Positions 1,279 to 48,738 of a stretch of DNA of 64,000 nt are shown piece after piece. The first letter of the stretch is position 1, and each line of letters opens with the position of its first letter. The stretch is from an archaeon CG10_big_fil_rev_8_21_14_0_10_43_11 (lineage in GTDB: Archaea; Nanobdellota; Nanobdellia; PEZQ01). The notes below the pieces were generated by a model, which was not told where the DNA came from, searched no databases, and saw only the letters and a list, made by a program, of their open reading frames with translations. The position numbers were made by a program, and so were the translations under genes. The DNA is taken from NCBI GenBank assembly GCA_002763265.1, contig PEZQ01000007.1, positions 63,368-127,367 on the forward strand. Direction: 5' to 3'.

Positions 1279-1306
1279 ACTAAGACAGTCCCTCCCTTTA
1301 AATGAG

Positions 1307-1381
1307 TGGGCGTGGAGGGATTTGAACCCCCGATCCCCTGGTTAGAAGCCAGGTGCCTTATCCAGACTAGGCCACACGCCC
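1307..1381 (-). tRNA. tRNA-Arg (anticodon UCU)
   Basis: Minus-strand sequence GGGCGTGTGGCCTAGTCTGGATAAGGCACCTGGCTTCTAACCAGGGGATCGGGGGTTCAAATCCCTCCACGCCCA folds as a cloverleaf: 7-bp acceptor stem, anticodon stem CCTGG/CCAGG, loop CTTCTAA with anticodon TCT, T-loop TTCAAAT. CCA not encoded. Confidence 0.85.
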
Positions 1382-1500: not shown

Positions 1501-3126
1501 CTACTTGCGGTAAGGTGAGCTAAAACTCTTATTGCGGTAGAGAAGGTAGCCAACAATTCCTGCTGCTCCGACAAAAATGAAGATGATAAGCGCAGAGACA
1601 AGGGTAATTACCGACTCTTTTTGTGCTAGCGCGCACCCGCTTGTTGTGCATGATGTTTCACATACTTCAACAACAACCCAGGCAAGGCCATCACTTGAAC
1701 AGCGTTCAAGCACGTTGTCAGAACAGCGTGGCTGATTTGGCGTGCAGGCTAAACTCGCTTCTTCAATGAGCGCGTCAGCAAACAATTCTGAGGAAAACCC
1801 GTTTACAAGCGTGTTAAGCACGCTTGAAGAATTAGATATTTCGCGCGAAACCGTGTAGTTTACCACAAACTCGTCACCAGGCTCAACAGAATCGTAGGTA
1901 ATAAGGTATTCAGGGTCTGCAGTAACCACTTGAATAGAACGCGCGCCACGCGCGCTTACGATAATGCTTCCCGCGTGCTCTGCAAACGTTTTTGGAACGC
2001 GCTCGTAGATGGTGAAGTTTTGAACAGAATGATTTCCCGCATAGCGTATTCGTGTGCTCACTACGGTCCTTCCGGGTTCAGCGCGTGCGCTGCGGTCAAT
2101 ACTTGTTTGTGAAGTGATAAGTTGTGAGAGCTGCAATAAGTTCTGCTGAGCAGGGTCTGCAAGCTTATCTGCTGCAAGCACGTTTTCGAGTGCGCCAAGG
2201 AGTTTTGTGTTATTGATAATGCCCCGCGGTGCGATGGTTCGTTGCGTGCGCGCCATTGATTGAGTAACATTACTTAGTGCTTCCTCTTCTGTTTCATTCG
2301 TTGTGGCTGATTGAGTTTGGTTTGTTTGCGTTTCGTTTATTGTCTGCGTCTGGTTCGTGCTGGATGATGGCGTATCATACGATACTACTGTAGTAGTCGT
2401 GCTTGAAGAAGATGCAGTCACCGTAAGAGACGTGTACTCAACAAGCGTTTGCCCGTTGCCACCCGTAATAGTTGTGCTCACGTTATACGTATTAGCTGAT
2501 GATGCTGAAAGCGAGTAATTAAGGTCAATAACTGAACCCCCCGTAATAGAGCCGCTTACAGAGCCTGACACAAGTGACGCACTCACGCCAGAGGGAGATG
2601 AGGAAACACTTACTGAATAATTTGTTGTTTCTCCCCCCGTGTTGTGAACGCTTACTGCCCAATAGGACGCAGCACTTGCAGTAACACTTGAGGCTGAAAG
2701 CGCTGATGAGGACGCAGCCAGACTCGCAGGAGCAGGAACAATAAGCCCGGTTTGCTGACTGTCTGAAAGGCTTCCGCCCGTACCTGAATCAGTGCCTGAA
2801 AGGCTTGCCGTGATTTGACCGGTGTAATCGCCTGCAAGACTAGCAGAACACGACCAGCTGGCAGAACCAGTGCCTGACGCACTTAATGAAACATCTTGAG
2901 GCGTTGAGGGTGAACATGACACGCCTGAAGGCAGGGTGAGTGATGCTTTAACACTTGACACTTGCGAGCCTGAAGCATATAATGAAATTGTGAAAGAAGA
3001 CGCTTGTGACGCGCTGTCAGGAATACTGATGCTCGTAATTGAAAGCGAACCTGCTGCGTGCGCGGGAAGCGCAAACACACTAAACGCTACAAAAAGGGCT
3101 GCAATCAGTAATGCGTTTCGTTTCAT
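1501..3126 (-). CDS. Ser/Thr-rich secreted cell-surface protein with C-terminal Cys cluster and single TM anchor
   Basis: 541-aa ORF; N-terminal signal peptide MKRNALLIAALFVAFSVFALPAHA; very high Ser/Thr content; C-terminal CTPNQPRCSDNVLERCSS...CETSCTTSGCA followed by TM helix and YRNK tail. Start abuts the stop of the upstream 1732-aa gene. Confidence 0.6.
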   Translation of the reverse strand: MKRNALLIAALFVAFSVFALPAHAAGSLSITSISIPDSASQASSFTISLYASGSQVSSVKASLTLPSGVSCSPSTPQDVSLSASGTGSASWSCSASLAGDYTGQITASLSGTDSGTGGSLSDSQQTGLIVPAPASLAASSSALSASSVTASAASYWAVSVHNTGGETTNYSVSVSSSPSGVSASLVSGSVSGSITGGSVIDLNYSLSASSANTYNVSTTITGGNGQTLVEYTSLTVTASSSSTTTTVVSYDTPSSSTNQTQTINETQTNQTQSATTNETEEEALSNVTQSMARTQRTIAPRGIINNTKLLGALENVLAADKLADPAQQNLLQLSQLITSQTSIDRSARAEPGRTVVSTRIRYAGNHSVQNFTIYERVPKTFAEHAGSIIVSARGARSIQVVTADPEYLITYDSVEPGDEFVVNYTVSREISNSSSVLNTLVNGFSSELFADALIEEASLACTPNQPRCSDNVLERCSSDGLAWVVVEVCETSCTTSGCALAQKESVITLVSALIIFIFVGAAGIVGYLLYRNKSFSSPYRK

Positions 3127-6100
3127 TTATGACACCGAAAATATGTTTGTTGCAACTGCAGTTGCTGAAGATATGTCAAGGCGGACAAAGTAATTACCAC
3201 TCATCGTATTCGTGCTGTTGAGCACGCCATAATAATTACTGCCTGATACTTGGTTGAGCGGAGTTGAAAACGAGGTGGTCTCGTTTGATGTTGCATTAAA
3301 CGTAATGGTAGTTGCCGTTGCATTTGCTTCATTAGTCAAAAGATACACGTCTTCGTTACTTGCAAAGCGTGTCGCGTTAGTTGACACACTTGAACCTGTC
3401 CAGATAATTGGAACTGACCCTGACGCAGGCGCAACGCTTACAACTTTTGTCTCGCTTCCCACACCAGGAACAAACGCTTTGAACACGTACAAGCCAGGAC
3501 TTGCAAGGGTGATATTAACAGGCGTGACTTGTGAAATGCCGCCACTCAAAACCACACTTCCATTATCATAAGCAAGGTTTTTTGCTGCAGGCGAGAACAC
3601 AGTAAGATTTGCTGTCGTGCTCGCGCTTGAACTGAGATTTGCAAGGAAACTTTCTCCTGCAACAATTGATGGAACGGAGAGATTGATTTGGGCGCCTGCA
3701 CTCTTTATGCTAATAAACGCAAAGCCAAAACCAACTGACTGGTTTACAAACATGCGCACACCAACAGGGTAGTCGCCAAGAACGCTTGTTTCATTAGGAA
3801 TTGAAATATTTATTATGTATGGCTGGCTTCTACCTGTAGTATTAAATGCCTGTTTGATTTCTCCTTTTGGCGTGAAAATTGAAATTGAACTGCTTGAAGC
3901 ATTAACCTCGCCACCAAGGGTTACATTAATGACCTGCACATTAAGCGTAATGTTCTCGCCTGGCGCGTACTGAGGTTTTGATGAATTAACCACCACTTTT
4001 AAGCGGCTGACTGCAAATCCTGAGTAGAATTGCACACTTGGACTGTTCGTAAGAAAGGCATGGATGAAATAATCGCCGTCAGTGTTGTTTGCAGTTATGT
4101 TGTATGTTATTTTTGCAACACCTGACGCGCCAGTTATTGCCGTTCCAACCGTGGTTGGCTTAAGCGTTTTTGAACCGATTTCAAATGTCACGTTCTTTCC
4201 AGCAATAGCAGTGTTATTCGAGAATGATACGAGTGCACTAAACGTAGCAACATCACCGGGACGGTATGGGTTTTGGAAAGGCTTGTCTGATTTTGCATCA
4301 ATGTTGAGTGCAGTGCCACCGGTAACAACAAAGTGTACTGGCGGCGCAAACCCGCGCTCGCCGCTTGGCGTTGTCACACTCACTTCAAGGTCGTAGCTGT
4401 GTGTTGGCGCGTCTTGCGGGATTGGAAAGCTGATTGTTGCGTTTCCGTCAGTTGTCGTGTTTGATGGAAGCTCAATGCGGTTTCCAAACGCCCAGATAAT
4501 ACCATCAACAACAGAATCGTCTGGCACGTTTCCACTGTTTGACGCATTAATAAAGAGCGTTACAAAAGAGCCCGGTGTTGCGTTGTATGACGTGACTTCG
4601 CTTCCCGCAGTAGCGTTAAGCAAGCTCACTTTAAGCGAAGATACCTGCAATCCAATGAATTGTGATTGACCGCCAACAACGATTCGCACGTAGTTGAAAC
4701 CGGGTTTTGACGCGTTCAAAAGCACGCTTGCCCGACCGGCTTCGTTTGTAGTGCTCACATTCGCGCTTACGTTAATATCATTTGGCGGTTGGGCTTTAAA
4801 GAGCGTTGCTGCAACGGCAGTTGCGTCAATAGCGGTGCCGTTTGGATAACTTACACTAATCGTGACATTCACGTGTTCGTTGGTATCATAACTGAATTTG
4901 TCTGTTTGCGCGTGTATGATGTACGCGTTCACGTCAAAGCCGGTGAAGAATTTTTGAGAATTTGCATTTGCATCAGTAACCGTAAGCTTAACATCGTGAT
5001 GGCCTACCGCATGACTGCTCAAATTAACGTGCCAAAAACCGCCATCAACTTGTTCGCCAGCAAATGAAACTGAATCGTTTCCGTCAACAACGGCGCTTAT
5101 CGAACTTATTGACACGTCAGGCGGGAAGAACATGTTAATGAACACGTCATCAGTAGCTTCGTACACAGGACGATCAGGGTGGACAAAAGAATCAAGACCG
5201 CGAATATCAAAGCCATAGAATGTTTCAATCCGCACCACGTCAGTTCCTGTATCACGCGAGATTTTGAGTTGCACGTTATGGAAGCCAAAACTCCACTGCC
5301 CGTTCGTGCCAAGACTTGCTGGGTCAAGTGAAATACTTGTTTTTCCATCACTGCCCGTGAGATTAATAATTGGCGTATTACTATTATCAACTACTGCCTC
5401 AACAGTTGCATTCACAAGCGGGTCGTTGTCTGCAGCGTTCAATACTTCAACATTCAGCTTGACTATGTCTTCTGGTTTGTATTTTTGGCGTTCTGATTCA
5501 ACTTTGATGTTAAGATTGCTGACTTGAATCCACCGGTTTGAAACACCATACCGTCCGTCTGCTTCAATTTTCACGGTAAGTTCGTAGAAACCCACTGAGG
5601 AAGGCATAGTGAGGTTAAGTGTTCCTTCACCATCAGCAATGCCTGAAGACGCGTTTACGATGCTCACTGCGTTGCCGTTTGCGTCATGCATTTCAACAAT
5701 GATGGCTGACGTGTTTTGCGCAACAGGTCCTGTTGCGTTGAACGCGAATATTTTTGCCGAAACGCTTTGTCCCGTGCCAAAACTAAAGCCCGGTAGGTCA
5801 AGACCAAGCACGAAGTCAAAAAGATTGATAGGAAAAATCGTGGTTGAAGAGAACGTCACGCCGTCAGTACTGTTTGTTGCATTAAGCAGCAACCAGTACT
5901 TGTCACCAATAAGACCGAGTTCGCTTGCGTTAAGGGTTGCATTAAAACTGTTTGCCCCCGGACCGGTTGGGTCAAAGGTGAAATTGATTGGGCTGTCTGT
6001 TGCAGAAGATTTGTTGACAAAAAGTATGTGGCCGGTGAGGTTAACAAAGGTGCTGTTTAATGGTCCGGTGCTGCCCATAACTGATGCAAAGAGTGTATTA

Positions 6101-8325
6101 TTGTCTGAGAGCGTCATTGAGTCAGGAAACATTGGCTGCACCTGCCACGCGTTTCCTCTTCGCAGGTTAACATTTGTTGTTGCTCCTGCAGTAATTGTAA
6201 ATGCTGTGCTGTTATACACACCAAGAAAACGACTCATTTCAAAGCGAGGCGCGAGCTCAATTGTGTAGGAGCCTGCTGGAAGCGGGATGCTGATATTTAG
6301 GTCAGGATTTTGGCCAAAACCAAGAATGTCTTGGAGTATTGTGCCATCAGGGTTGAGGTAGTAGATAGTTTTCCCGTTTACTGAATTTCTAATGACAATG
6401 TTTGTTTCAAACCAGAAATTGAACTGCGAAATGAGTTGCGGACTTCCCCCGGTTGGATTAAAAATATTTTGAAAATCAGTAACTGAAAGATTAAGTGAGC
6501 CCGGCTCTGAAAGATTGCAGGTGCTTGCTGTTGCACTTCCTTGCATAATTGTTACTTCGCTTTGACACACACCAATTGCAGGACTACTCCCCCCTGGCCC
6601 GCCGCCAAACGTGGAATTTTTTCCAAGCAAGTTGAAAAACACATCATCATTAGACACGGGTGCAAGCAGTGAGAGAATCAGGTTTTGCGGCAGCGACACA
6701 CCAGTAAAAATTGAAAGCATGTTGATTTTTCCTGCAACTGCGCTTCTCAAAAGACCGATACCATTTGTAACCACTTTACTTAACTCGCTTAACACAAGAG
6801 CCGCGCTGTTGAGCGTTACATTAATGTCAACGCGACCACCATCCTCGAGTTGAAGGGGTGAGAGAATTACTGTTGCGCTTTGCGCGAAGTAACCGCGGTT
6901 TCCATTTGTTTCCACCGTAGGGAAGTATATTGGCACGCCATCAGTAGTTTCATTGCTGATAATATAAAACTGGTAGATAGGGTATGGATAGGAACCAAAA
7001 TCATCTGAAATCATTTGCGTTGTTGGCACGCTTAAACTAAATCTTCCGTTTGCGTCAGTAACGGTTGAATTAATAAACGAGATACCAAAACCACCACCCC
7101 CTCCCTGATAGAGTTGGGCATAAACAATCGCGTTAGGAACGGCATTTTTTGTGCTGTTTATGACTTTGCCAATAAACGCGGTGTAATTAGTAGTAGTGTT
7201 CACAACAGTGATATCCGCGCCAGTCATGCCAGTTGACGGTGTCATGAACGGATACGAACGCAAGCCGACTCCTGACACGTTTGCTTGGATATTATAGAAG
7301 TGATTGTTTGCAATAAAAAAAGGAAAACCTCCTTTTGGTCCATCACCGCCGCCTTGCGGGGGTACGGAGTGGTAGACAAGTGCGTCGGTTTCATAATCGG
7401 TTAAGTTAAGTTCTGCAATGTTTGGCTGTGAGGGCATGCCTGGTGAAGTGCTGTACAATTGGGGCGAGACAAAACCCACTGCTGCGGGCGTTTGAAGAAT
7501 TACGTTAAGCGCGGTGCCCGGAGTGATATTGACAACCGCGGACGTGTTTGATGTAATAAAATCAAAAGCAAAAATGGATGCGGTCGCGTTTATCTGGCAA
7601 TCACTTGAAGGTCCTTCGCCTTCTGAAGGAAACGGTATGCCCCGCGTTACGCACATGTTATTGGATATGGCGGGTGTTGGGCTGATACAATCACCTGAAT
7701 CAACTTGTCCTAAACAATGAATTGCGTAATACCCTGAGGTATCTGTTGCTGCAGGACCTGACGCGATAAAAGATTTTGTGCCATTATTGTAGGTCATGAG
7801 CAGTGTGTTTTGAATTGGGTTATCATCTTCATCAAGCGCGTGCAACGCAACGTAGTTGATGGTAAACATGCTGCCGTTACAGCCCACGCCTTCGGCGCAT
7901 TCTGCAGCGGTAGTTGCGTAATTTGTTTTGTTAAAAAGCGTGGCATTAATTTGAATCGTACTGTTTGTAAATGGCGCGTTCGTAGCATTTAATACGAGGT
8001 CTACACAACCCCCTCCTGTTTCATTAGTGAGCCCGACTGCGTTGTCGAAGGGAGCACCATTAAGAAGCGTTGCGTTTGTTATGTTAAATTCAGGACTTGA
8101 GAAATTAAAAGGACCCGTGCCATCATACCAGAGGTTGAAATCCTTGACTGTTTGAAGCGTGCCCGCACAAATGGTTATGCTTTGGTTGCCAGCAGTATTG
8201 TACGCGTCAGAAAGACAAAACAGAGTTTGACACGAGTTTTGCAAAACAGCGTAAGACGACGCAGGCAAGAGCAGGATAGGTGCTAAAAACAACAAAACGT
8301 ATACTGCCCCCTTCCCACCCAACAT
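3127..8325 (-). CDS. Giant secreted surface protein (1732 aa), sequon-rich, probable S-layer or adhesin-like glycoprotein
   Basis: Uninterrupted 5.2-kb ORF; signal peptide MLGGKGAVYVLLFLAPILLLPASSYA; many N-x-S/T sequons (NQS, NFS, NIT, NAT, NLT...); no recognisable enzymatic motifs. Confidence 0.6.
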   Translation of the reverse strand: MLGGKGAVYVLLFLAPILLLPASSYAVLQNSCQTLFCLSDAYNTAGNQSITICAGTLQTVKDFNLWYDGTGPFNFSSPEFNITNATLLNGAPFDNAVGLTNETGGGCVDLVLNATNAPFTNSTIQINATLFNKTNYATTAAECAEGVGCNGSMFTINYVALHALDEDDNPIQNTLLMTYNNGTKSFIASGPAATDTSGYYAIHCLGQVDSGDCISPTPAISNNMCVTRGIPFPSEGEGPSSDCQINATASIFAFDFITSNTSAVVNITPGTALNVILQTPAAVGFVSPQLYSTSPGMPSQPNIAELNLTDYETDALVYHSVPPQGGGDGPKGGFPFFIANNHFYNIQANVSGVGLRSYPFMTPSTGMTGADITVVNTTTNYTAFIGKVINSTKNAVPNAIVYAQLYQGGGGGFGISFINSTVTDANGRFSLSVPTTQMISDDFGSYPYPIYQFYIISNETTDGVPIYFPTVETNGNRGYFAQSATVILSPLQLEDGGRVDINVTLNSAALVLSELSKVVTNGIGLLRSAVAGKINMLSIFTGVSLPQNLILSLLAPVSNDDVFFNLLGKNSTFGGGPGGSSPAIGVCQSEVTIMQGSATASTCNLSEPGSLNLSVTDFQNIFNPTGGSPQLISQFNFWFETNIVIRNSVNGKTIYYLNPDGTILQDILGFGQNPDLNISIPLPAGSYTIELAPRFEMSRFLGVYNSTAFTITAGATTNVNLRRGNAWQVQPMFPDSMTLSDNNTLFASVMGSTGPLNSTFVNLTGHILFVNKSSATDSPINFTFDPTGPGANSFNATLNASELGLIGDKYWLLLNATNSTDGVTFSSTTIFPINLFDFVLGLDLPGFSFGTGQSVSAKIFAFNATGPVAQNTSAIIVEMHDANGNAVSIVNASSGIADGEGTLNLTMPSSVGFYELTVKIEADGRYGVSNRWIQVSNLNIKVESERQKYKPEDIVKLNVEVLNAADNDPLVNATVEAVVDNSNTPIINLTGSDGKTSISLDPASLGTNGQWSFGFHNVQLKISRDTGTDVVRIETFYGFDIRGLDSFVHPDRPVYEATDDVFINMFFPPDVSISSISAVVDGNDSVSFAGEQVDGGFWHVNLSSHAVGHHDVKLTVTDANANSQKFFTGFDVNAYIIHAQTDKFSYDTNEHVNVTISVSYPNGTAIDATAVAATLFKAQPPNDINVSANVSTTNEAGRASVLLNASKPGFNYVRIVVGGQSQFIGLQVSSLKVSLLNATAGSEVTSYNATPGSFVTLFINASNSGNVPDDSVVDGIIWAFGNRIELPSNTTTDGNATISFPIPQDAPTHSYDLEVSVTTPSGERGFAPPVHFVVTGGTALNIDAKSDKPFQNPYRPGDVATFSALVSFSNNTAIAGKNVTFEIGSKTLKPTTVGTAITGASGVAKITYNITANNTDGDYFIHAFLTNSPSVQFYSGFAVSRLKVVVNSSKPQYAPGENITLNVQVINVTLGGEVNASSSSISIFTPKGEIKQAFNTTGRSQPYIINISIPNETSVLGDYPVGVRMFVNQSVGFGFAFISIKSAGAQINLSVPSIVAGESFLANLSSSASTTANLTVFSPAAKNLAYDNGSVVLSGGISQVTPVNITLASPGLYVFKAFVPGVGSETKVVSVAPASGSVPIIWTGSSVSTNATRFASNEDVYLLTNEANATATTITFNATSNETTSFSTPLNQVSGSNYYGVLNSTNTMSGNYFVRLDISSATAVATNIFSVS

Positions 8326-8411: not shown

Positions 8412-9059
8412 ATGGAGCAAGAATTGCGCATCGTTGTTGACCATCGCGAGCTCAAAAGTGGAGTTGTCAAAGAATTGTTTCGAAACAAGGTACATATCAT
8501 AACTGAACAACTCGCGATTGGTGATTTCATTCTTGGCGAGCATGTAGTGTGCGAGCGAAAAGGCGTGGAAGATTTTGTAAACAGCCTACTTGACGGAAGA
8601 CTCTTCAAACAAGTCAAACAGCTTAAAGACGCGTACAAAAAACCGTTTCTTATTATTGAAGGCACGCGAGACATGTACTCGGTTCGAAACGTGCACGCAA
8701 ATGCAATACGCGGGGCAATGGCAAGCCTTGCTCTTGACTTCTCATTACCCATTATTTTTACAAAAGATGAAAAAGATACGGCTCACTTTTTTATCACCAT
8801 TCTCAAGCGCGAAAAAACTGACACGCAGGCAAACCTGCGTGCAGCACCAAAACCTTTAACGGACGTTGAATTGATGGAATACATCGTGTCCTCGTTTCCG
8901 GGAGTGGGAAGACGAACTGCGCAAAATATTCTCTTACAATTCAAAACCATTCATTCATTTGTCACAAGCGAACATGAACAGCTTACAAGCGTTGAGGGTG
9001 TGGGAAAAATCACGGCAGAACGCATTAAAGACATTATACAAAAGAGGTATAAACAATAA
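8412..9059 (+). CDS. XPF/Hef-type structure-specific nuclease (ERCC4 nuclease domain plus C-terminal HhH2)
   Basis: 215 aa; ERCC4 signature VVDHRE...GDFILGEHVVCERKGVEDFVNSLLDGRLFKQ (GDF...ERK...D); C-terminal helix-hairpin-helix FPGVGRRTAQNIL...VEGVGKITAERI. Confidence 0.75.
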   Translation: MEQELRIVVDHRELKSGVVKELFRNKVHIITEQLAIGDFILGEHVVCERKGVEDFVNSLLDGRLFKQVKQLKDAYKKPFLIIEGTRDMYSVRNVHANAIRGAMASLALDFSLPIIFTKDEKDTAHFFITILKREKTDTQANLRAAPKPLTDVELMEYIVSSFPGVGRRTAQNILLQFKTIHSFVTSEHEQLTSVEGVGKITAERIKDIIQKRYKQ

Positions 9060-9373
9060 AAAAATAGCGGGGGGATAGGAGAAAATGCTCTAAATACACG
9101 ACATCCACACTATATGTGAAACGCTATGAATGTTATCAAAAACAAAAGCATCAGGGCTTGAAAAAGATTGAAAACTATGAAAAAACTTGAACCTAAAGTA
9201 ACCAATCAGGAAAACAGGCACGCCTTTATTACGTATTGGTCTGAATACGTGCGAACGCACCCTGATGGAAAACGCAAAACACTTTCCCTTAACTGCAGAA
9301 CAATATTTAACCCTCAAAAAAGAGCCCTACAGCAAGCGCGCGCAAAGATTAAAGATAGCACCACACCTAAAAA

Positions 9374-9997
9374 ATGAGTATGGCATCAAAAAAATGGCAC
9401 GCGTTGTGGACTCCGCAAAACAAAAAACGCCTGCGCGTACTCGAATTCTTCACCCGATTTCTTCTCCTTGCCATCCCGCTCTATCTTATCATGTACTCCC
9501 CACTCTCGCTTTATTTTGCTGAAGACCTTATTGCAAATATCAGCGAATACGCCCTCACTATAAGCGGAAAAGCAGTGTTGAGAAGCGAAGGGGTCGAATA
9601 CAACGGGCTTGCCATGCCCCTACTCTACGTGCAGGGCATTGAAAAAGGCGTGGGAATCGCGCGCGCATGCACGGGCTACCGCTCATTTATCGCGCTTGCT
9701 GCGCTTATCTTCGCGGTGCCGCGCATACCAAACAAGAAACGACTCTTAGGGCTCATAGTCTTTGCACCCATTCTCTTTTTTACAAACATTGTTCGGGTTG
9801 TCTCAACTATCTGGATTGGCGCAACCTTCGGGCTTGACTGGTTTGAGCTCACGCACACATTCTTGTGGAGAGAAGGGCTTATCGCGCTCATCCTGCTCAT
9901 GTGGGTGGTGTGGCTGCTTCGCGTGCAAAACATCTCGATGAGAAGCGTTTGGCGCAGGGCAAAAATGAACGTGACGGGTTTTATACAGAAAATATGA
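9374..9997 (+). CDS. Exosortase/archaeosortase-family membrane protein (short form)
   Basis: 207-aa polytopic membrane protein; ARACTGYRS followed about 35 aa later by TNIVRVVSTIW resembles the Cys-Ser/Thr-Gly and Asn-x-x-Arg signatures of the exosortase/archaeosortase (EpsH) family as recalled from memory. Start codon uncertain. Confidence 0.5.
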   Translation: MSMASKKWHALWTPQNKKRLRVLEFFTRFLLLAIPLYLIMYSPLSLYFAEDLIANISEYALTISGKAVLRSEGVEYNGLAMPLLYVQGIEKGVGIARACTGYRSFIALAALIFAVPRIPNKKRLLGLIVFAPILFFTNIVRVVSTIWIGATFGLDWFELTHTFLWREGLIALILLMWVVWLLRVQNISMRSVWRRAKMNVTGFIQKI

Positions 9998-10024
9998 AAT
10001 ACCCACGCCACATCAAAAACGAGT

Positions 10025-10879
10025 ATGAATGAAAGGGAAGCGCGTGTTGTACAGTACTTGCGAACAAACGGACCAAGCCTGCCAGTACAAGTGTCAAAAG
10101 CACTAGAAGAAAATGTGATGTTTGCTTCAGCACTGCTTGGCGGGCTTGTGGCTACAAAACAAATCAGGCTTACGCGAAAAAAAATCGGCAACTCACCGCT
10201 CTACTTTCTGCCAGAACACATTAATCACGCACGAAGAATCATTTATGACCGACTTGACCCTCGAGAAAAAGAATTAGTTGATTTTGTCACTAAAAAAGGC
10301 GTGGTGCGCGAGGACGAGCTCACCCCAACTGAGCGGTTTTTTATCAAGGACTTGGTTGATTTTTTTGAATCAGAACAAGAAAACAACCAAACGTACTGGA
10401 AAGTGCCCGGAACAAATGCAAAACCAACGCTTGAACCGCCAAAACCTCTTGTGTCAAAACCAGAGCCGAGCGCGCGAAGAGAGGAACAGCAACCCTTTAT
10501 CAAACAAGAAGCAGAACCCCACGAGGAGAAAAAACCCATCCATCTCAAAGATTCAGGTGATGATGAGTTCACGCGCAAAGTAAAACACTTCTTTGTCAAG
10601 CGGGGTATTCGCATTCTCAACACGGATGTGGTGCGAAGCAATGCGGAAATAAACTTTACTGTGCAAATCCAGGGAGACTTGATTCCCCAAACCTATTTTG
10701 TAAAAGCGCGCAAGAAAAAGAAAATCAACGACAACGACCTTATTGCTGCATGGTTTGAGGGACGAAAGCAAAAAGCACCCATACTCTATCTCGCAACAGG
10801 AGAGCTCACTAAAAAAGCGGAAAAATTCTTAAAAGAAGAGTTTGGCGAAAACTTCACGTTTCTCAAAGTAAGCGTGTAG
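10025..10879 (+). CDS. Hypothetical protein, N-terminal winged-helix-like region, acidic linker and C-terminal alpha/beta domain
   Basis: 284-aa ORF with coding-like composition; no catalytic motif recognised with confidence. Confidence 0.35.
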   Translation: MNEREARVVQYLRTNGPSLPVQVSKALEENVMFASALLGGLVATKQIRLTRKKIGNSPLYFLPEHINHARRIIYDRLDPREKELVDFVTKKGVVREDELTPTERFFIKDLVDFFESEQENNQTYWKVPGTNAKPTLEPPKPLVSKPEPSARREEQQPFIKQEAEPHEEKKPIHLKDSGDDEFTRKVKHFFVKRGIRILNTDVVRSNAEINFTVQIQGDLIPQTYFVKARKKKKINDNDLIAAWFEGRKQKAPILYLATGELTKKAEKFLKEEFGENFTFLKVSV

Positions 10880-10916
10880 AAATCTTTAAAATCCAACATG
10901 CAATGTTCTTACATTC

Positions 10917-11894
10917 ATGGAATCAGATGCCAAAATCTATGTTGCAGGACACCGCGGACTTGTAGGCTCCGCGCTTGTGCGAAAACTTGAAGAGCGGGGC
11001 TACACCAATCTTGTGTACAAAACCTCACGCGAACTTGACTTGCGACGACAAAGCAGTGTTGAAGCATTCTTTCAAAAAGAAAAACCAGAGTATGTTATCA
11101 TTTCTGCAGCAAAAGTTGGCGGCATCATGGCAAATAAACAATCACCTGCAACCTTTCTTACTGACAATCTGCTTATTGAAACTAATCTTATCAAAACCGC
11201 GTACGAGACGGGCGTAAAAAAACTATTGTTTCTTGGAAGCTCGTGCGTTTACCCAAAATTCGCGCGCCAACCCATGCGAGAAGAATACTTTCTTACCGGT
11301 CCGCTTGAGCCAACCAATGAAGGGTATTCTGTTGCAAAAATTGCGGGCATGGAACTGTGCAAACACTACCACACCCAATACGGGGCGGAATTTTTCTCAG
11401 TCATGCCCACAAACCTATATGGCCCGCACGACAATTTTGACCTCACGTCTTCGCACGTGATTCCCGCGCTCATACGCCGATTTCACGAAGCAAAAGAGCG
11501 CGCAGACAAGACCGTGACGCTTTGGGGAACGGGCAGTGCAAAGCGCGAGTTCATGCACGTGGACAGCTTGGCAGATGCGCTCGTCTACGTGATGGAACGC
11601 GTGAGTCTCGAAGACATTGCACGCCTTGACTGGGAAGAAAACGCGCCAAACAAAACCTTTGTCAACATTGGCACGGGAACTGACATCAGCATCAAAGACC
11701 TTGCCTACAAGATAAAAGACATTGTCGGCTACTCGGGACGCATTGAACACGACCTTACCAAGCCTGACGGCACGCCACGAAAACTCTTGGACGTATCAAA
11801 ACTCTCACAACTTGGCTGGAAAGCAACCATTGATTTTGACGCAGGCCTTAAACAAACCTACGCATGGTATCTTGAAAACATAGCCTCACGCTAA
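10917..11894 (+). CDS. fcl: GDP-L-fucose synthase (GDP-4-keto-6-deoxy-D-mannose 3,5-epimerase/4-reductase)
   Basis: 325 aa; N-terminal Rossmann IYVAGHRGLVGSAL; SDR catalytic region GSSCVYP...YSVAK; overall collinear with bacterial Fcl/WcaG. Confidence 0.85.
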   Translation: MESDAKIYVAGHRGLVGSALVRKLEERGYTNLVYKTSRELDLRRQSSVEAFFQKEKPEYVIISAAKVGGIMANKQSPATFLTDNLLIETNLIKTAYETGVKKLLFLGSSCVYPKFARQPMREEYFLTGPLEPTNEGYSVAKIAGMELCKHYHTQYGAEFFSVMPTNLYGPHDNFDLTSSHVIPALIRRFHEAKERADKTVTLWGTGSAKREFMHVDSLADALVYVMERVSLEDIARLDWEENAPNKTFVNIGTGTDISIKDLAYKIKDIVGYSGRIEHDLTKPDGTPRKLLDVSKLSQLGWKATIDFDAGLKQTYAWYLENIASR

Positions 11895-12015: not shown

Positions 12016-12225
12016 ATGAAAGAATTTAATATAATTATTGAAAAAGGTGAAGATGGTTATTTAATTTCTGAAGTAGTTGGACTTCCTGGATGCCATACAC
12101 AAGCAAAATCTATGGATGAATTGATTAAGAGAACTAAAGAAGCAATTTCATTATATCTTAAATCCAAAGATGACTCTGTTGACGTTACAGACACGTTCAT
12201 AGGTATGCAGAAAATAGCACTATAA
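12016..12225 (+). CDS. hicB: HicB-family antitoxin
   Basis: 69-aa protein MKEFNIIIEKGEDGYLISEVVGLPGCHTQAKSMDELIKRTKEAISLYL typical of HicB/UPF0150; immediately followed by hicA with a 1-nt gap. Confidence 0.6.
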   Translation: MKEFNIIIEKGEDGYLISEVVGLPGCHTQAKSMDELIKRTKEAISLYLKSKDDSVDVTDTFIGMQKIAL

Positions 12226-12226
12226 C

Positions 12227-12454
12227 ATGTCAAAATTGCCACTTTTATCCGCTAGAGTATTCTTTAAAGTTTTAAGTAAACTTGGGTTTGAAAAGATAAG
12301 GCAAGAAGGAAGCCACGTATTTTTTAGGCATCCAGACGGAAGAACAACGGTAGTACCGAATTACCCTAGAGAAAAACTGAATCGTGGACTTCTAAATAAA
12401 ATTGTAAAGAAGGATTTGGAAATTACAAGAGATGACTTAATGAAACACGTGTAG
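12227..12454 (+). CDS. hicA: HicA-family toxin (mRNA interferase)
   Basis: 75 aa; KVLSKLGFEKIRQEGSHVFFRHPDGRTTVVPNYP matches the HicA dsRBD-like motif (GSH...H). Confidence 0.7.
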   Translation: MSKLPLLSARVFFKVLSKLGFEKIRQEGSHVFFRHPDGRTTVVPNYPREKLNRGLLNKIVKKDLEITRDDLMKHV

Positions 12455-13250: not shown

Positions 13251-13400
13251 CGTGGTCGTTTTTGAAGTGAAATACGTGGTAGGGCTCGCTTTGCCATAAC
13301 CGGTTGCGTGCGCATTCGCGCTCTTTTTTCCACACGTTCATACCCGTACGTAAAGCATGTGCGCGCATATAAGAATTGTTGAAAAAAAAGGTGGGGGGTA

Positions 13401-13475
13401 TAGCGGGAGGAGGATTTGAACCTCCGACCTCAGGGTTATGAGCCCTGCGAGCACTCCAAACTGCTCTATCCCGCT
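13401..13475 (-). tRNA. Initiator tRNA-Met (anticodon CAU)
   Basis: Minus-strand AGCGGGATAGAGCAGTTTGGAGTGCTCGCAGGGCTCATAACCCTGAGGTCGGAGGTTCAAATCCTCCTCCCGCTA: A1:U72 pair and three consecutive G:C pairs in the anticodon stem (GGG/CCC) are archaeal initiator hallmarks; loop CTCATAA. Confidence 0.85.
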
Positions 13476-13556
13476 ATCAATAGGTTCTCTAAGGGCTATA
13501 CCCTCGCCGTACTTGAAACATGAAAGCTCCTTTTAAAGTTAACTGAAACGTAGACG

Positions 13557-13725: not shown

Positions 13726-13965
13726 ATGCTTATGACAAATAAATCGTTCATAGATTCAGAAGATGTGTTGGATGTTGAATTCGCGATTAAGAACGCAGAA
13801 GAATATCAAACCATTGAAGAATTAGCAAATGAGATAAAGAAAAGTAAGAAACTTGTAGAGCGAATCGTCTTTTATTTGCAAGAAAAGAACAGAGTCATAC
13901 TAAACAAGGAGAAAAAGATTATCTGGATTTACCAGCCAGAACTAATAAAAAACGCGGTGTTTTAA
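13726..13965 (+). CDS. Putative antitoxin of RelE/ParE-type TA pair
   Basis: 79-aa ORF placed 3 nt upstream of a RelE-like toxin ORF; AT-rich; assignment by context only. Confidence 0.3.
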   Translation: MLMTNKSFIDSEDVLDVEFAIKNAEEYQTIEELANEIKKSKKLVERIVFYLQEKNRVILNKEKKIIWIYQPELIKNAVF

Positions 13966-13968
13966 AAA

Positions 13969-14307
13969 ATGGCTTGGTGGGAGGATAAGGAAATAAAAGT
14001 GGGTTTCTTAAACAAAGACGTTGAAAACCAGATTGAAGAATTCAACAACAGCAGTTTCAAAGCAATATATCATAAGATACAAGAAATTAAAAAATTGTTG
14101 AAAGACAATCCAGAAATGGGAAGAAACGTTAAAAAGAAGCTCATTCCCAAAAAATATAGGGGTTTTTCAAACCTTAACATAATCAATCTCCCCGACGGTT
14201 ATAGATTATTATACACCATTGGAGGTTCTAATGATATTGAAATTGTGGGCGTTTTGCTTGTAGATTGCTTATCCCACCCTGATTATGATACACTTTTTAA
14301 TTTCTAA
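13969..14307 (+). CDS. RelE/ParE-superfamily toxin (putative)
   Basis: 112 aa; C-terminal PDGYRLLYTIGGSNDIEIVGVLLVDCLSHPDYDTLF resembles the RelE/YoeB core (YR..Y ... I.H..DY). Confidence 0.45.
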   Translation: MAWWEDKEIKVGFLNKDVENQIEEFNNSSFKAIYHKIQEIKKLLKDNPEMGRNVKKKLIPKKYRGFSNLNIINLPDGYRLLYTIGGSNDIEIVGVLLVDCLSHPDYDTLFNF

Positions 14308-14467: not shown

Positions 14468-15154
14468 TTAGAGTTGGCTCATCATTTGTTTGCGGTACAG
14501 GTAGAGTGCAGCTGCAATAATCACAACTACAATGCCCGCAAGTCCAATCCAAAGCATCCAGTTCGTGCGTGGTTCTTCTTCGCTCACGCCGGTTTGAGCA
14601 GTTACGTTCTCTTCTGCAACCGGTGCTGAGATAACATCTGCTTCTGCACAGTCTGCTTCACAGCTTGCTGTAGTCTCGCTACCTTCACAGACGCCGTCTC
14701 CGCACGTGATGGTTCGTACCGTGACGGTTTGTGCCGCGCTTTCCTGACTGACTGAAGTTGGTGTTGATTGCGCGTACAAGTAGGGTCCAAACGAATAGCT
14801 GCCTTCAGTGATTGGCGCGAGCGTGGTGTACGAAAACGTGGCGCTCGTGAGGTTTTGAAGTGACGTGTCAAATTCAACGTCAATGTTTTGTCCGACAATC
14901 GTGACAGTAACGTAATCTTGTGAGAACCCGCTTACTGACCAGTCTTGCACGCTCCAGCCGTTTGGTAGTTTGTCTGAGAGCGCGAATCCTGCGGGGCTCT
15001 CGGTTACGATGCTAACACTTATAGTCACGATTTCTCCAGATGCTGCGCGCGCGGGGCTGATGCTTCTGCTCACGCTCTCAGCGTGTGCTGCACCTATGAA
15101 TAAGAGGAGTGCGAGTGCGAATACGATTTTTTTCATGATTTTTCTATCCTCCAA
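14468..15154 (-). CDS. Secreted surface protein with C-terminal Cys cluster and single TM anchor
   Basis: Signal peptide MKKIVFALALLLFIGAAHA (from the internal Met); C-terminal CGDGVCEGSETTASCEADC then TM helix and YRKQ tail; same topology as the 541-aa protein. Overlaps the stop of the upstream 544-aa gene. Confidence 0.5.
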   Translation of the reverse strand: MEDRKIMKKIVFALALLLFIGAAHAESVSRSISPARAASGEIVTISVSIVTESPAGFALSDKLPNGWSVQDWSVSGFSQDYVTVTIVGQNIDVEFDTSLQNLTSATFSYTTLAPITEGSYSFGPYLYAQSTPTSVSQESAAQTVTVRTITCGDGVCEGSETTASCEADCAEADVISAPVAEENVTAQTGVSEEEPRTNWMLWIGLAGIVVVIIAAALYLYRKQMMSQL

Positions 15155-16778
15155 AGTATGTTTCTATTGAGTCAAAGAGTTCTCTGAGCGTGAGCGCGCT
15201 TGAACCGCTAAAGTACGAGTCTATCAGGTCAAACAAGTCTCGAAGCGTGCTTATGGTGGTTTCAAGTTTTGCAAAGATTGCAAAGTACGAGAAGCCAGGC
15301 GTTTTTGCTTCAAAGTAGTAGTTCTCGCCGTCACTGCTCACAAGGGTTGTTGGCAACGTGCTCCACGCCCCGTTGTGGAAGCGGGTGAGCCTGATTTGAT
15401 TGGTTTTGTAGCCGTTTTCTTCAAGCCATGCTTTTGGCAGCTGGAATTCTACAACTGCTTCTTCAATGTCATCGTTGCTCACACTTGACGTAAATTCAAG
15501 GTAGCGGTAGATTTCTGAGAGTCCTGCAATTGCAAAGCCTGACGTTTCAGTTGGTTCTTCAGCGAGGGTTTGCACACTTATTGTGACGTTTGTTTGCGTG
15601 TTTTTTGTGGTAATGCTCAGTGATTTAATGTTCGTGCTGCTTGCATTTTCAAATTCAAGTTTTTTAGCAAGTCCCGGCGGCACGATTGGAAGCGTTTTGT
15701 TGACTTTAACCACGTTTACTTGTGCGGGCGTGTTTTTGGTCTTGTTTGTTGCAGGCGTGCTTGTTGAAACCGTGATGGTGACTCCTGCCCCCACTGCGTA
15801 ACTGAGGCTGAAGTATTGGGTTGATGACGTGCCGTAGTTTCCTGCAGCGTCACTGCACGTTACATTGATTGCGTGCTGTCCGTTTGCAAGGTCTGAGGTG
15901 TTGACTGACGTGGCCGTGTTGTTTGTTGCCGAGCCAATCGTAGTATTTGCGCCATCAAGCGTGTAGAGGCACGTGGAAGAGGTTGATATGTCATCCACTG
16001 CCGTGAACGTGACATTAACAAGCGTGGTGTTATAGGTAAGATTCAATGGATACGTCAAGCTCACGGTTGGAGCCACTGAGTCAATTGAGAATGATGTTTT
16101 ATTATTAATGTTAGAATAAATGAAATCACCCGTGCCATCTTGCGCGTGAGCGCTCAAGAATGCAGTATAGTTTCCTGTTGTCGCAAGCGTTTCAGCAGTG
16201 AGGTTCCAGGTAATATTATAGCGAAGTTCGCCTCCCGCATACAAACCAGAATCACTATATCCCGAAACATATCCATACCCATAGCCGTTAGCGAAAGATT
16301 CGTTGTTATTACCATACGACGTTGAGCTTATGTCGTATCCATATCCGTACCCATATAGATTCGTGCTTGACGCATAACCAACCGTGTAAATTGGGTAGAT
16401 AGTAAGATTTCCGCAACCAGAAACTGCAGTACCACCCGGCGTGAACACACACGTTTTGTTGACTTGACCACTAGAAATTGTAAGTGTCAAATTCTTAACA
16501 GGTATTCGCTCACCTGCATCAATATCAACGCCAACAGTAAAGTTTACGGGGTCAAGTGCTTTGTAGGTTGACTTATCTGCAGATGATGTGACGGTGACTG
16601 CCTGAGCTGGTCCTGAAAGAATTAACAAACTGAGTATGAGAAATGATACAATGAATGGACGCAGAATTTTTTTCTTGTCTTTTTTTGCGGGTCCTAGATA
16701 GATGCTCTTAACTTTGCCATCTACTCGTGCTGACTCGTAAAGATATTCCTTCCCATTAATGGTTCGTTTGAAAGCCAT
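15144..16778 (-). CDS. Cell-surface protein with Tyr/Gly repeats and a C-terminal PGF-pre-PGF-like region
   Basis: 544 aa; hydrophobic segment ILRPFIVSFLILSLLILSGPAQA; YGYGYGY and NGYGYGY repeats; near C-terminus ...NGAWSTLPTTLVSSDGENYYFEAKTPGFSYFAIFA followed by two tandem about 14-aa repeats (LRDLFDLIDSYFSG / LRELFDSIETYFGG). Confidence 0.5.
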   Translation of the reverse strand: MAFKRTINGKEYLYESARVDGKVKSIYLGPAKKDKKKILRPFIVSFLILSLLILSGPAQAVTVTSSADKSTYKALDPVNFTVGVDIDAGERIPVKNLTLTISSGQVNKTCVFTPGGTAVSGCGNLTIYPIYTVGYASSTNLYGYGYGYDISSTSYGNNNESFANGYGYGYVSGYSDSGLYAGGELRYNITWNLTAETLATTGNYTAFLSAHAQDGTGDFIYSNINNKTSFSIDSVAPTVSLTYPLNLTYNTTLVNVTFTAVDDISTSSTCLYTLDGANTTIGSATNNTATSVNTSDLANGQHAINVTCSDAAGNYGTSSTQYFSLSYAVGAGVTITVSTSTPATNKTKNTPAQVNVVKVNKTLPIVPPGLAKKLEFENASSTNIKSLSITTKNTQTNVTISVQTLAEEPTETSGFAIAGLSEIYRYLEFTSSVSNDDIEEAVVEFQLPKAWLEENGYKTNQIRLTRFHNGAWSTLPTTLVSSDGENYYFEAKTPGFSYFAIFAKLETTISTLRDLFDLIDSYFSGSSALTLRELFDSIETYFGG

Positions 16779-17789: not shown

Positions 17790-18175
17790 AATATTTTATT
17801 TTTAAATCTTGACTCATACTTTTTGAAAACTAAAGGAAAGAGGATTATGAGAACGGATTGTATTAAAAGGTTTAACGCGCTTAACTCTATTCTCAAGTAG
17901 TAGTTTGTGAAAAAAGTTAACATTGTCATGCTTGCGATACTAAGTGCAACACTAATCACGAATGTTTCAAGTTTGTCAATTTTTTGGATGAATGTCCTTG
18001 TTATACTATATCCTGGAAGAAAGAGTATAAAGGGAATCCCGTACACCGCGCGTAATGATGAGGTTAACGTAAACGATGGCGTTAGGGCTAGGACTAGCGC
18101 GCATAGCGTTAGTATTACTATACTGGTTCCAGCAAGTACCCACTGCCTACGCAGACTTATTTCTTTCATTATCAA
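17771..18175 (-). CDS. Hypothetical small membrane protein (4 predicted TM)
   Basis: 134-aa hydrophobic ORF; could be the N-terminal part of a frameshifted gene together with 16977-17789. Confidence 0.3.
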   Translation of the reverse strand: MIMKEISLRRQWVLAGTSIVILTLCALVLALTPSFTLTSSLRAVYGIPFILFLPGYSITRTFIQKIDKLETFVISVALSIASMTMLTFFTNYYLRIELSALNLLIQSVLIILFPLVFKKYESRFKNKILWKNKK

Positions 18176-18255
18176 ACGTAAGTGTTGCTAAGTTTTTAAT
18201 GTTATTCAATACGTGACATATTAACTTTTAACTATGCAACCGCTTAGCTATTTGC

Positions 18256-19770
18256 ATGAAAGTGGGGCTTAATTTTTTGAAAAACAAGTATTTCTTACTC
18301 TTGCTCATTTTAGGTCTTGCCTTTGTGTTAAACTTTCATATGCGCCTTGACTACGAATTTCCAATTCATGTTGATGAATGGAAGTCTTGGGCAATTTCGC
18401 AACAAATAGAAAACGACGGCATCCCCTACACAGAACCGTATCTCCAACAAAATGTAGTCCATCGCGATTTAGAAATTGGTACATTCCTTTCCATAAGTAT
18501 AATACAACAGGTAACGGGCATCCCCTGGTTGAATATATTCAGGTTCATGCCCGTAGTACTCTTACTCTTAAGCACTCTCACCGTGTATTGCATTGGAAAA
18601 CGAGAAAATATAGGGTTAGAAAGCGCACTTGTCTACACGCTTATTCCTACAAGTGTACGTTTACTTGGCCCCGTATTTCTTGTTCCAGTTTCATTCACGC
18701 TTCTTTCTGTTCTTATTGGGATACTCTTATTGACGCGAGAATTAAAAACAAAACACATTCTTACAAGTGTAAGTATTATTACACTCTATCTCGCATATGC
18801 GTATCCTCCGGCACTAATCCTATTAGGTTTTATTGTCTTGCCATTTATCGTGTTTCAAAAAAGATTCTTATTAAGTATACCATTTTTTATAGCAATAGTG
18901 GTATCCATTCCACAACATCTTAGGTATGTTATAGAAACAGAGGGGCGAGCACTTTCATTTACAGTTATTCCTGTAGTTCTAGATGTGGCGCGAGAGTTTG
19001 GTGTGGTTCTTACTGCACTCTTTGTTATTGGAGTGTATCTTGTTTGGAAACATGAGAATAGACGACTCAAGTATTTCTCGATCACAAGCATGTTTCTCTT
19101 AGTGATTATCTTCTTGTTTCACATTCAAGATTTTTCGTTTCTCATTCCTCCAACGCGCGCGTATTTCTATCTAATGGTGCTCATGGTTTTTCCAATTGGT
19201 TATACAATAAAAAACCTCATTGAACAAAAGCATGCCGCCCTTACTATAACCCTCCTGATTTTTTTGCCATTTATTCTATTTCTGATTCGAACTAATCCCT
19301 TTACCAAACCAAGTGCGGATTGGATATTTCACATCACGTTCATTCCACTGTGTATAGGAATTGCAAGCATTATGGTCCCCTTGTCTCTTCGTAAAAGAAA
19401 ACACGCGCTTACTATTCTCTGTCTTACTACCCTCATTATTGCTATTGTTATTCCTGCGTTTCAACGGAATTTAGACATGCCATACTACAATGTTATTGAT
19501 GAGCATGAATATACAACATTTCTCTCATTAAAAGAGCAATACACTGGCGGTGTTGTTGCAATTGACCCGTGGAAAGCACTTGCATTTACCCCGTTAACAG
19601 GACTTCCAGTATATTCACGAATTGGTGACGGACCAAATGAATTTTTGGCAGAACGGAATCAAGAGTTAAACTGGTTCTTTGAAGAGAACTGCGAGAATAC
19701 AACATTTATAGAAAACAATAATATTGGTTTATTCTATCCAGATACTTATTGCACACAGATTATTAAATAG
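18256..19770 (+). CDS. Large polytopic membrane protein, possible GT-C-type glycosyltransferase or glycan polymerase
   Basis: 504 aa, more than 10 hydrophobic helices, first gene of the glycan cluster; family not resolvable by eye. Confidence 0.4.
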   Translation: MKVGLNFLKNKYFLLLLILGLAFVLNFHMRLDYEFPIHVDEWKSWAISQQIENDGIPYTEPYLQQNVVHRDLEIGTFLSISIIQQVTGIPWLNIFRFMPVVLLLLSTLTVYCIGKRENIGLESALVYTLIPTSVRLLGPVFLVPVSFTLLSVLIGILLLTRELKTKHILTSVSIITLYLAYAYPPALILLGFIVLPFIVFQKRFLLSIPFFIAIVVSIPQHLRYVIETEGRALSFTVIPVVLDVAREFGVVLTALFVIGVYLVWKHENRRLKYFSITSMFLLVIIFLFHIQDFSFLIPPTRAYFYLMVLMVFPIGYTIKNLIEQKHAALTITLLIFLPFILFLIRTNPFTKPSADWIFHITFIPLCIGIASIMVPLSLRKRKHALTILCLTTLIIAIVIPAFQRNLDMPYYNVIDEHEYTTFLSLKEQYTGGVVAIDPWKALAFTPLTGLPVYSRIGDGPNEFLAERNQELNWFFEENCENTTFIENNNIGLFYPDTYCTQIIK

Positions 19771-19810
19771 ATAGAGTATGGGAGTATAAAACACGGTTAG
19801 TATTATAATC

Positions 19811-21277: not shown

Positions 21278-22358
21278 AGGACCTTATCTCCGCGCGAATG
21301 GGGTACTTCCATGGGAATATCTACATAACCATTCTAACATAGCTGTGACTGCCTACGCTAGCAAACCCAAACGATTTGAATATTCATCTCTTAATATGCC
21401 AGTAAAAGAATTGTTCTGGCCCGAAGGCTATTCAAAGGCTGTTAGATTCGCACTAACTAAATTAAAATTTCCAAGAAATCTGCTTTTCGATATTAAACAA
21501 GTAGTTAACGAAAATGATATTCTACATGTAAGCGAAAACTACCATCTTTTCTCCTATCAGACAGCAAAATATTGTAAGCGAAAACGATTTTTTTTTGCAC
21601 AAGGTGAAAACATCCCGCACCCCTCATCCCAGAACAGTTATTTAATAAAACACATTAAACGGTTTGTTAATAAGAACGCAGAGAAGATAACAACAACCAC
21701 AGAATTAGCAAAGAAAGCATTAATTCATGAAGGAGTAAATGATGAAAAGATATTCATTGTCCCAAACGCAACAGACACGAACCTCTTCACACCAGAACCC
21801 AAAAGAACAAGTGGAACAGACTTACCCAAAGAGCTAGAAACCACATTCAACATTATTTTTGTTGGTCGCCTGAGCGAACAGAAGGGAATACCTTGGCTAC
21901 TAGATGCTTTCAAAAGAATCAAAAAAGAAGATGTGCGACTTATTCTTATTGGAAAAAATGTTGAGCATTTCAATGTACGACATAAGCACATCTATCACAT
22001 CCCTTATGTCGAACATCAACAGTTACCAAGAATTTATAACTTAGCAGACATAGGGATATTACCAAGTATACCTACCAAAAACAATGAAGAACAGTTCGGT
22101 CAAGTTGTGCATGAAGCCATGGCATGCGGAAAGCCTACACTTGTGACAAATGTGGGGGGTATGCCTGAGATAGTTACTGAAAAAACAAGCTTTGTAATAA
22201 ATTATAAATCACCACAGGATATTAAAGAGAATATCTTATACTTTTACCAAAATGAAACGGAAAAGAAAAGAATGGGTCAAGCTGCAAGACAGCATATAGA
22301 AAGAGAATATACTCCACGCATCATCGCAAACAAACTAAAGAGGCTATATCATGAATAA
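21258..22358 (+). CDS. Glycosyltransferase family 4 (GT-B fold)
   Basis: C-terminal GT4 signature EQFGQVVHEAMACGKPTLVTNVGGMPEIV. ORF track starts at 21219; internal Met at 21258 chosen to avoid a 59-nt overlap with the flippase. Confidence 0.75.
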   Translation: MKVGLLRGPYLRANGVLPWEYLHNHSNIAVTAYASKPKRFEYSSLNMPVKELFWPEGYSKAVRFALTKLKFPRNLLFDIKQVVNENDILHVSENYHLFSYQTAKYCKRKRFFFAQGENIPHPSSQNSYLIKHIKRFVNKNAEKITTTTELAKKALIHEGVNDEKIFIVPNATDTNLFTPEPKRTSGTDLPKELETTFNIIFVGRLSEQKGIPWLLDAFKRIKKEDVRLILIGKNVEHFNVRHKHIYHIPYVEHQQLPRIYNLADIGILPSIPTKNNEEQFGQVVHEAMACGKPTLVTNVGGMPEIVTEKTSFVINYKSPQDIKENILYFYQNETEKKRMGQAARQHIEREYTPRIIANKLKRLYHE

Positions 22359-25470: not shown

Positions 25471-25525
25471 AGACAACATCAAATTCACAAAACTATTTAT
25501 ATGATTATCAATTGTTATCTTTCAA

Positions 25526-48732: not shown

Positions 48733-48738
48733 GCCTTT

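Follow-up and report, generated by a model that had tools for sequence, protein, structure and literature searches.

The gene at positions 9374..9997 on the forward strand of a 64-kb stretch of DNA from the uncultured DPANN archaeon CG10_big_fil_rev_8_21_14_0_10_43_11 (the whole stretch that was analysed, hereafter the window) probably codes for a functional, minimal member of the archaeosortase/exosortase family with four transmembrane (TM) helices and a sorting role that we assign by homology. The gene encodes a protein of 207 aa and represents the only long open frame at this place, the opposite strand being rich in stop codons. In public gene calls, the start of the identical protein (P0001) is set at the ATG at 9380, two codons later, which results in a protein of 205 aa.

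Membership in this family had been proposed by a sequence-only reading of the same DNA and was borne out by the curated cut-offs of two models, both of which were exceeded: the exosortase/archaeosortase signature model TIGR04178 matched with 61.3 bits against a cut-off of 23 (E = 8.3e-17), and PF09721 with 50.7 bits against a cut-off of 25.7 (E = 2.1e-13). By these scores, the family match of the 207-aa protein is far beyond chance. The features that mark membership were found in the protein as Cys99, Arg141 (together with Asn138) and His161, one at the end of each of three successive TM helices. In an NCBIfam scan, the protein reached the cut-off of no curated Art or Xrt subfamily model, with scores of 41.7 bits for XrtX (cut-off 170), 39.6 bits for XrtH (86), 36.0 bits for pacearchaeosortase (NF033505; 80), 33.6 bits for heimdallarchaeosortase (NF045528; 130), 31.5 bits for ArtB (150), 30.8 bits for the ArtA model TIGR04125 (75) and 25.6 bits for ArtE (95). 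The protein had also been described as far shorter than classical family members and as possibly representing a minimal or novel subfamily. The size of about 200 aa stands, but it is not exceptional, as at least 11 curated subfamily models have 150-200 positions, namely XrtX (168), XrtH (158), pacearchaeosortase (167), heimdallarchaeosortase (199), ArtB (156) and XrtS (155) and, likewise in NCBIfam, ArtE (153), XrtM (150), XrtR (160), XrtG (187) and XrtF (174). With regard to novelty, the idea holds only insofar as no curated subfamily model was reached; the clade around the protein is large and has already been given a generic family name by NCBI, where several homologs are called 'exosortase/archaeosortase family protein'. 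Judged from its sequence, the 207-aa protein is recognisable with standard models and is mostly an ordinary member of the family.

A profile search against 1.84 billion representatives yielded 3638 proteins at E<=1e-3, 541 at E<=1e-10 and 117 at E<=1e-30, and most of the best 150 matches were 165-200 aa in length. The 49 close homologs measured between 155 and 241 aa, contained PF09721 in every case and originated from metagenome-assembled genomes (MAGs) of Nano-, Parv- and Aenigmatarchaeota; Undinarchaeota MAGs were also among the sources of the closest relatives. TIGR04178 was matched by all 101 clade members scanned, and the best E-values for subfamily models among these were 2.8e-20 for ArtB, 2.1e-18 for XrtH and 3.7e-13 for pacearchaeosortase. 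Since the subfamily cut-offs were missed by the 207-aa protein and were reached by none of the 100 relatives scanned besides it, we assign the protein to an unnamed DPANN clade. By these model and profile searches, short archaeosortases of about 165-200 aa form a sizeable clade in DPANN archaea, with neither a curated subfamily model nor a name. A literature search on the names of the short subfamilies returned nothing useful, and we found no solved structure of the archaeosortase/exosortase family in the PDB.

The two motifs that had been noticed in the protein beforehand were confirmed at residues 98-104 (ACTGYRS; 9665..9685, + strand) and 137-144 (TNIVRVVS; 9782..9805, + strand), separated by 32 residues. 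The former is located at the outer start of TM2 and contains the predicted nucleophile Cys99 (nt 9668-9670), and the latter lies at the outer end of TM3 and contains Asn138 and Arg141 (nt 9794-9796). At the outer start of TM4, the motif HTFLWR (residues 161-166; 9854..9871, + strand) begins with the near-invariant His161. For the family as a whole, Cys, Arg and His have been proposed as the catalytic triad (10.1101/2023.06.07.544157, PMC4343526), and ArtA of Haloferax volcanii requires the conserved residues Cys173, Arg214 and Arg253 (PMC9263693). To assess conservation, 63 close homologs were aligned, and a set of 151 representatives of clusters at 50% identity was examined. Asn138, Arg141, His161, Trp165 and Arg166 were invariant in all 63 close homologs; among the 151 representatives, Asn138 and Arg141 were present in 149 and His161 in 147, and Arg166, which is conserved just among close relatives, was kept in 68 only.

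Position 99 was occupied by Cys or Ser in all but two of the 151 representatives, the exceptions being one Phe and one gap. The window protein is of the Cys type. Ser, typically in the context WDSTGWKS, was found in 32 of the 63 close homologs and in 29 of the 151 representatives, which corresponds to 19-50% of clade members. As the Cys of the family has been described as almost perfectly conserved (10.1101/2023.06.07.544157), its replacement by Ser in these alignments appears notable. The absence of the Cys from half of the close homologs, together with the lack of a substrate signal in our searches, could be taken to mean that the protein has lost catalysis and persists as a relic, or that its role in the membrane is purely structural. 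We consider this very improbable, since the window protein retains Cys99, Asn138, Arg141 and His161, the catalytic positions are strongly constrained over hundreds of diverged sequences and, apart from the two exceptions, a lost Cys is replaced by Ser only, as would be the pattern of active enzymes. The exchange of Cys for another nucleophile with Asn, Arg and His held fixed thus argues, at the level of these alignments, for retained catalysis.

Two clade members turned out to be rare fusion proteins: P0106 is fused to a C-terminal cytoplasmic Zn-ribbon, and the Ser-type protein P0155 to a glycosylated ectodomain of 240 aa, the N-terminus of which is pilin-like. We considered these fusions as functional clues and set them aside, as they are single cases and not decisive. 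In the Undinarchaeota locus L011, the gene downstream of the sortase gene (10704..11732) encodes an ectodomain, a TM helix, a basic cluster and a Zn-ribbon, in a layout that recalls ArtA substrates with an internal tripartite signal.

Hydropathy analysis gave four TM segments, and an AF2 model of the protein, built on an alignment, reached a pLDDT of 91 and a pTM of 0.81. The model contains long helices at residues 14-41, 102-113, 120-152 and 154-184; residues 47-86 form a further helix and a beta-hairpin. TM1 comprises residues 22-41 (9437..9496, + strand) by hydropathy and falls into the first of these helices. It is followed by an extracytoplasmic segment of residues 42-97 (9497..9664, + strand), in which the model places an amphipathic helix (47-63) and a beta-hairpin (68-74/80-86). 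This segment is the most variable part of the protein in the alignment of the clade and has a net negative charge family-wide, and we regard it as a candidate substrate-recognition region. Lys and Arg residues number 6 in the 21 residues of the N-terminus, 4 in the 8 residues of the loop between TM2 and TM3 and 5 in the 24 residues of the C-terminus, and the mean net charge of these regions across 151 clade members was +4.0, +2.9 and +2.7, respectively, compared to -2.1 and -0.5 for the two other loops. As Lys and Arg are thus enriched in both termini and in the loop between TM2 and TM3, the positive-inside rule points to a topology with both termini in the cytoplasm. In the predicted arrangement, four TM helices span the membrane, and Cys99, Asn138/Arg141 and His161 would be located at the outer face, at the ends of TM2 to TM4. 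Whether the Cys and the Arg lie on the same side of the membrane had been raised as a check on the family assignment; based on the charge distribution and the AF2 helices, both Cys99 and Arg141 are predicted to be extracytoplasmic. Outward-facing catalytic residues correspond to the orientation predicted for ArtA (PMC4343526).

From the family membership, the conservation of the catalytic residues and the predicted topology we infer the activity of the protein, the chemistry of cleavage and the kind of target. A working sortase of this type would sit in the cytoplasmic membrane with both termini inside and with Cys99, Asn138/Arg141 and His161 gathered at the outer face. By analogy to Haloferax ArtA, it would recognise secreted proteins that are held by a C-terminal TM helix, and would cleave them beside this helix via an acyl-enzyme on the Cys, so that the mature protein would stay at the cell surface, possibly bound to a lipid. 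The open reading frames of the window show that the same genome encodes secreted proteins that end in a TM helix and a basic tail.

To our knowledge, ArtA of Haloferax is the only archaeosortase that has been studied experimentally. The H. volcanii protein (HVO_0915) belongs to the same superfamily as the window sortase by TIGR04178 and PF09721, shares with it an outward-facing, conserved Cys and Arg where consecutive TM helices end, and the job expected of both is the removal of the C-terminal TM anchor of secreted surface proteins. In contrast to the four TM segments of the window sortase, ArtA has 7 (PMC4343526), and its substrates are PGF-CTERM proteins, none of which was found among the window proteins scanned. 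Closer in size are ArtB (with VPXXXP-CTERM substrates), ArtE, XrtH, XrtX, pacearchaeosortase and heimdallarchaeosortase, whose models have 153-199 positions and which are likewise minimal in consisting of one leading TM helix and a three-helix catalytic core; judging by its name, pacearchaeosortase is also a DPANN subfamily. The window sortase differs from these six in scoring far below each of their curated cut-offs. Sortase A of Gram-positive bacteria, which acts on LPXTG proteins, is analogous in having a Cys/Arg/His site and in its recognition of a C-terminal motif followed by a TM helix and a basic tail, but its fold is unrelated, a soluble beta-barrel on a single anchor, whereas the window sortase is a polytopic membrane enzyme.

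The sortase gene had been described as lying between two operons for surface proteins with C-terminal TM helices and basic tails, with the implication that these could be its substrates. Both operons exist, one encoding proteins of 1732 and 541 aa at 1501..8325 (- strand) and the other proteins of 544 and 228 aa at 14468..16778 (- strand); the second pair is located 4.5 kb from the sortase gene, beyond toxin-antitoxin genes and a tRNA-Met gene. The described C-terminus, however, applies to the smaller, downstream protein of each pair and not to the larger partner. In the whole window, the combination of a signal peptide, a C-terminal TM helix and a basic tail is found only in the 541-aa protein (1501..3126, - strand), which in addition contains a Cys-rich module and ends in RNKSFSSPYRK, and in the 228-aa protein (14468..15154, - strand), which ends in RKQMMSQL. 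The 1732-aa partner contains an MG2 domain and is secreted without an anchor. The 544-aa partner (15144..16778, - strand) is also secreted and carries a PGF-pre-PGF domain (TIGR04213, 98.8 bits), a domain that usually precedes the PGF-CTERM signal of ArtA substrates or accompanies such substrates, and ends without a TM helix or a PGF-CTERM tail. Both pairs have the same layout, in which a large unanchored secreted protein is followed by a smaller TM-anchored one, with stop and start codons that abut or overlap.

NCBIfam and Pfam scans of the 541-, 228-, 1732- and 544-aa proteins gave no match to any CTERM sorting-domain model, and the 228-aa protein matched the LPXTG-anchor model below threshold (12 bits versus 15.9). 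A hydropathy screen of all open reading frames of the window and of 20 loci detected no more than four secreted proteins with a TM helix at the C-terminus, two of them in the window and two in L004, the locus of the closest relative (a 560-aa ortholog of the 541-aa protein and a 1088-aa protein), and no motif common to the four. Between the 541-aa protein and its 560-aa ortholog, the juxtamembrane sequence differs and the tail of the latter is longer, with 'SPY' as the one conserved element of the cytoplasmic part. When the last 187 aa of the 541-aa protein were searched against a database, a fragment of this same protein was the sole match.

These data bear on the reading that the 541-aa and 228-aa neighbours are the substrates of the sortase, cleaved at their C-terminal TM helices, and that they anchor the 1732-aa and 544-aa partners. 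Besides the domain layout of the two smaller proteins and the PGF-pre-PGF domain of the 544-aa partner, this reading is favoured by L004, in which a pair of the 1732/541 type is also divergently adjacent to XPF and the sortase gene, and by an 'EEP[RK]T' stretch that precedes the TM helix in both the 228-aa protein and the L004 560-aa protein. On the other hand, no CTERM model was matched, and the juxtamembrane region of the 541-aa protein is unlike that of its ortholog, whereas known sorting signals carry a conserved motif directly abutting the TM helix (10.1101/2023.06.07.544157). Moreover, cytoplasmic tails of 8-20 residues with a conserved 'SPY' suit a permanent anchor, and adjacency to a surface-protein pair is absent in 18 of 20 loci, recurring only in L004, the sortase of which is 54% identical to that of the window. 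The layout of the pairs also resembles that of the SlaA/SlaB S-layers of Sulfolobales, where a large unanchored secreted protein is encoded beside a smaller one with a C-terminal TM helix and this TM anchor is kept in organisms that have no archaeosortase (PMC6098224). The window pairs differ from SlaA/SlaB in that they have no detectable sequence similarity to them and in that the window genome does have an archaeosortase. All in all, the implied enzyme-substrate link gained no support beyond proximity, in view of the missing CTERM match and the missing shared motif; the 541-aa and 228-aa proteins are possible substrates, and we judge the full reading, with cleavage of both and anchoring of their partners, to be rather unlikely.

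Across the clade, proximity of the sortase gene to genes for surface proteins or polysaccharides is not conserved, and a different set of neighbours recurs far more widely. In 18 of 20 distinct DPANN loci, the sortase gene is preceded on the same strand by a gene for a Hef helicase and/or an XPF nuclease, with XPF upstream on the same strand in 17 of the 20. In 12 of those 18 loci, XPF and the sortase gene are separated by a DUF460 gene, the end of which often overlaps the sortase start. This Hef-XPF-(DUF460)-sortase string was found in the window (8412..10879) and in L004, L006-L009, L013-L016, L018 and L020-L026; it spans Nanoarchaeota, Parvarchaeota and Aenigmatarchaeota and is absent in Undinarchaeota (L011, L017). 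It persists across phyla at a sortase identity to the window protein of no more than 26-54%. On the 3' side, the sortase gene is followed by a gene for a winged-helix protein in Nano- and Parvarchaeota and by genes for a coiled-coil protein and then a topoisomerase in Aenigmatarchaeota.

In the window, the conserved upstream neighbour is an XPF-type nuclease with ERCC4 and HhH2 domains (8412..9059, + strand; PF02732, 115 bits). Between this gene and the sortase gene lies a very basic 66-aa open reading frame (9177..9377, + strand), the stop codon of which overlaps the sortase ATG (ATGA). It has no homologs outside identical contigs and is absent in L004 and L006, and its status as a real gene is doubtful. 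The idea that it is a decayed DUF460 was rejected, as the DUF460 profile gave no signal. The downstream neighbour (10025..10879, + strand) encodes a 284-aa protein in which two winged-helix domains are joined by a disordered linker of ~35 residues to a PD-(D/E)xK-like fold at the C-terminus; its AF2 model has a pLDDT of 86.6, and Foldseek matched it to the winged helices of ScpB and MarR and to MspJI. No Pfam or NCBIfam model matched this protein, which belongs to a DPANN-wide hypothetical family that adjoins the sortase gene only in the Nano/Parvarchaeota group; its sequence is identical to that of a hypothetical protein recorded for archaeon CG10_big_fil_rev_8_21_14_0_10_43_11. Elsewhere, members of the 284-aa family sit beside genes for the tRNA-splicing endonuclease or FEN1. 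We rejected the 284-aa gene as a dedicated partner of the sortase, as it is not adjacent to the sortase gene in more distant genomes (L027-L029).

The recurrent string raises the question of a role in genome maintenance, in which the sortase would be co-expressed with Hef, XPF and DUF460 and would process or tether a factor for DNA repair, DNA uptake or the attachment of the chromosome to the membrane. Hef and/or XPF are directly upstream in these 18 loci, with small gaps or overlapping frames, DUF460 is an archaeal RNase H-fold protein resembling Holliday-junction resolvases (PMC3985635), and the downstream genes are DNA-related as well, be it the winged-helix and PD-(D/E)xK protein or the coiled-coil protein and topoisomerase. 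From the gene orders compared here, we nevertheless read the string mainly as retained ancestral gene order, because it also includes unrelated genes such as those for diphthamide synthase, YjbQ and AMMECR1 within each phylum, because the winged-helix gene lies elsewhere in more distant genomes, because Undinarchaeota lack the linkage, and because the active site of the sortase is predicted to face away from the cytoplasm and hence from DNA. Ancestral order would be enough to explain the synteny, and in the window the gap between XPF and the sortase gene amounts to 314 nt. We therefore hold a genome-maintenance role to be quite unlikely.

There is, in our estimate, a similarly slim chance that the clade constitutes a distinct, unnamed DPANN subfamily of minimal four-helix enzymes with a Cys/Ser switch at the nucleophile and a gene locked in the Hef-XPF-DUF460 string across at least two phyla, with either a non-classical role or a sorting signal that has no motif. 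If this were true, the clade might, for instance, process a membrane factor coupled to DNA repair, uptake or segregation in host-dependent archaea or, alternatively, use a new type of sorting signal without a signature motif. The reading we prefer is that of a probable sorting enzyme of the known family.

The window contains several other features worth recording. A gene for the LonB protease is split over two open reading frames at 57649..60081 (- strand): the first (59071..60081) covers the N-terminal part with the AAA domain and has an intein N-terminal splicing domain (PF14890) at its end, and in the second (57649..59013) an intein-C-like stretch precedes the remainder of LonB. The intein may be naturally split, or a stop codon may have interrupted it. 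A block at about 18000..38000 has a GC content of 32-38%, compared to 44-47% in the flanks, and appears, judged from its open reading frames, to be an island for surface glycosylation, of which two products were scanned, namely a Polysacc_synt/MurJ-type flippase (19811..21277, in L001) and a protein of the PMT_2 family (30324..31958). From its composition, the block may have been acquired horizontally. Between the sortase gene and the second surface-protein pair lie a HicB/HicA module (12016..12454) and a ParE-like toxin module (13726..14307). The window has tRNA genes at 1306..1381 and 13400..13476, and the tRNA-Met gene is likewise situated between the sortase gene and the second pair; the stretch with the HicB/HicA and ParE-like modules and tRNA-Met looks like a small mobile or variable region. 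Finally, the stretch at 46921..49320 (- strand) holds a gene for a 603-aa DUF2207 membrane protein, which ends in some 25 residues rich in Gly, beside a LemA gene, and a DUF2207 and LemA pair is also found near the sortase gene in the relative L006.

Since the sortase is already recognisable with standard models, the practical gain from the window is small. Curation would be worthwhile for a subfamily model of the DPANN clade and for the natural Cys/Ser variation at the nucleophile, as would a search for the targets. An enzyme of ~200 aa with four helices would conveniently serve as a minimal model of the family in studies of mechanism and structure. Archaeosortases decide the mode of attachment of archaeal surface proteins, and DPANN archaea live attached to hosts, a lifestyle for which surface proteins matter.
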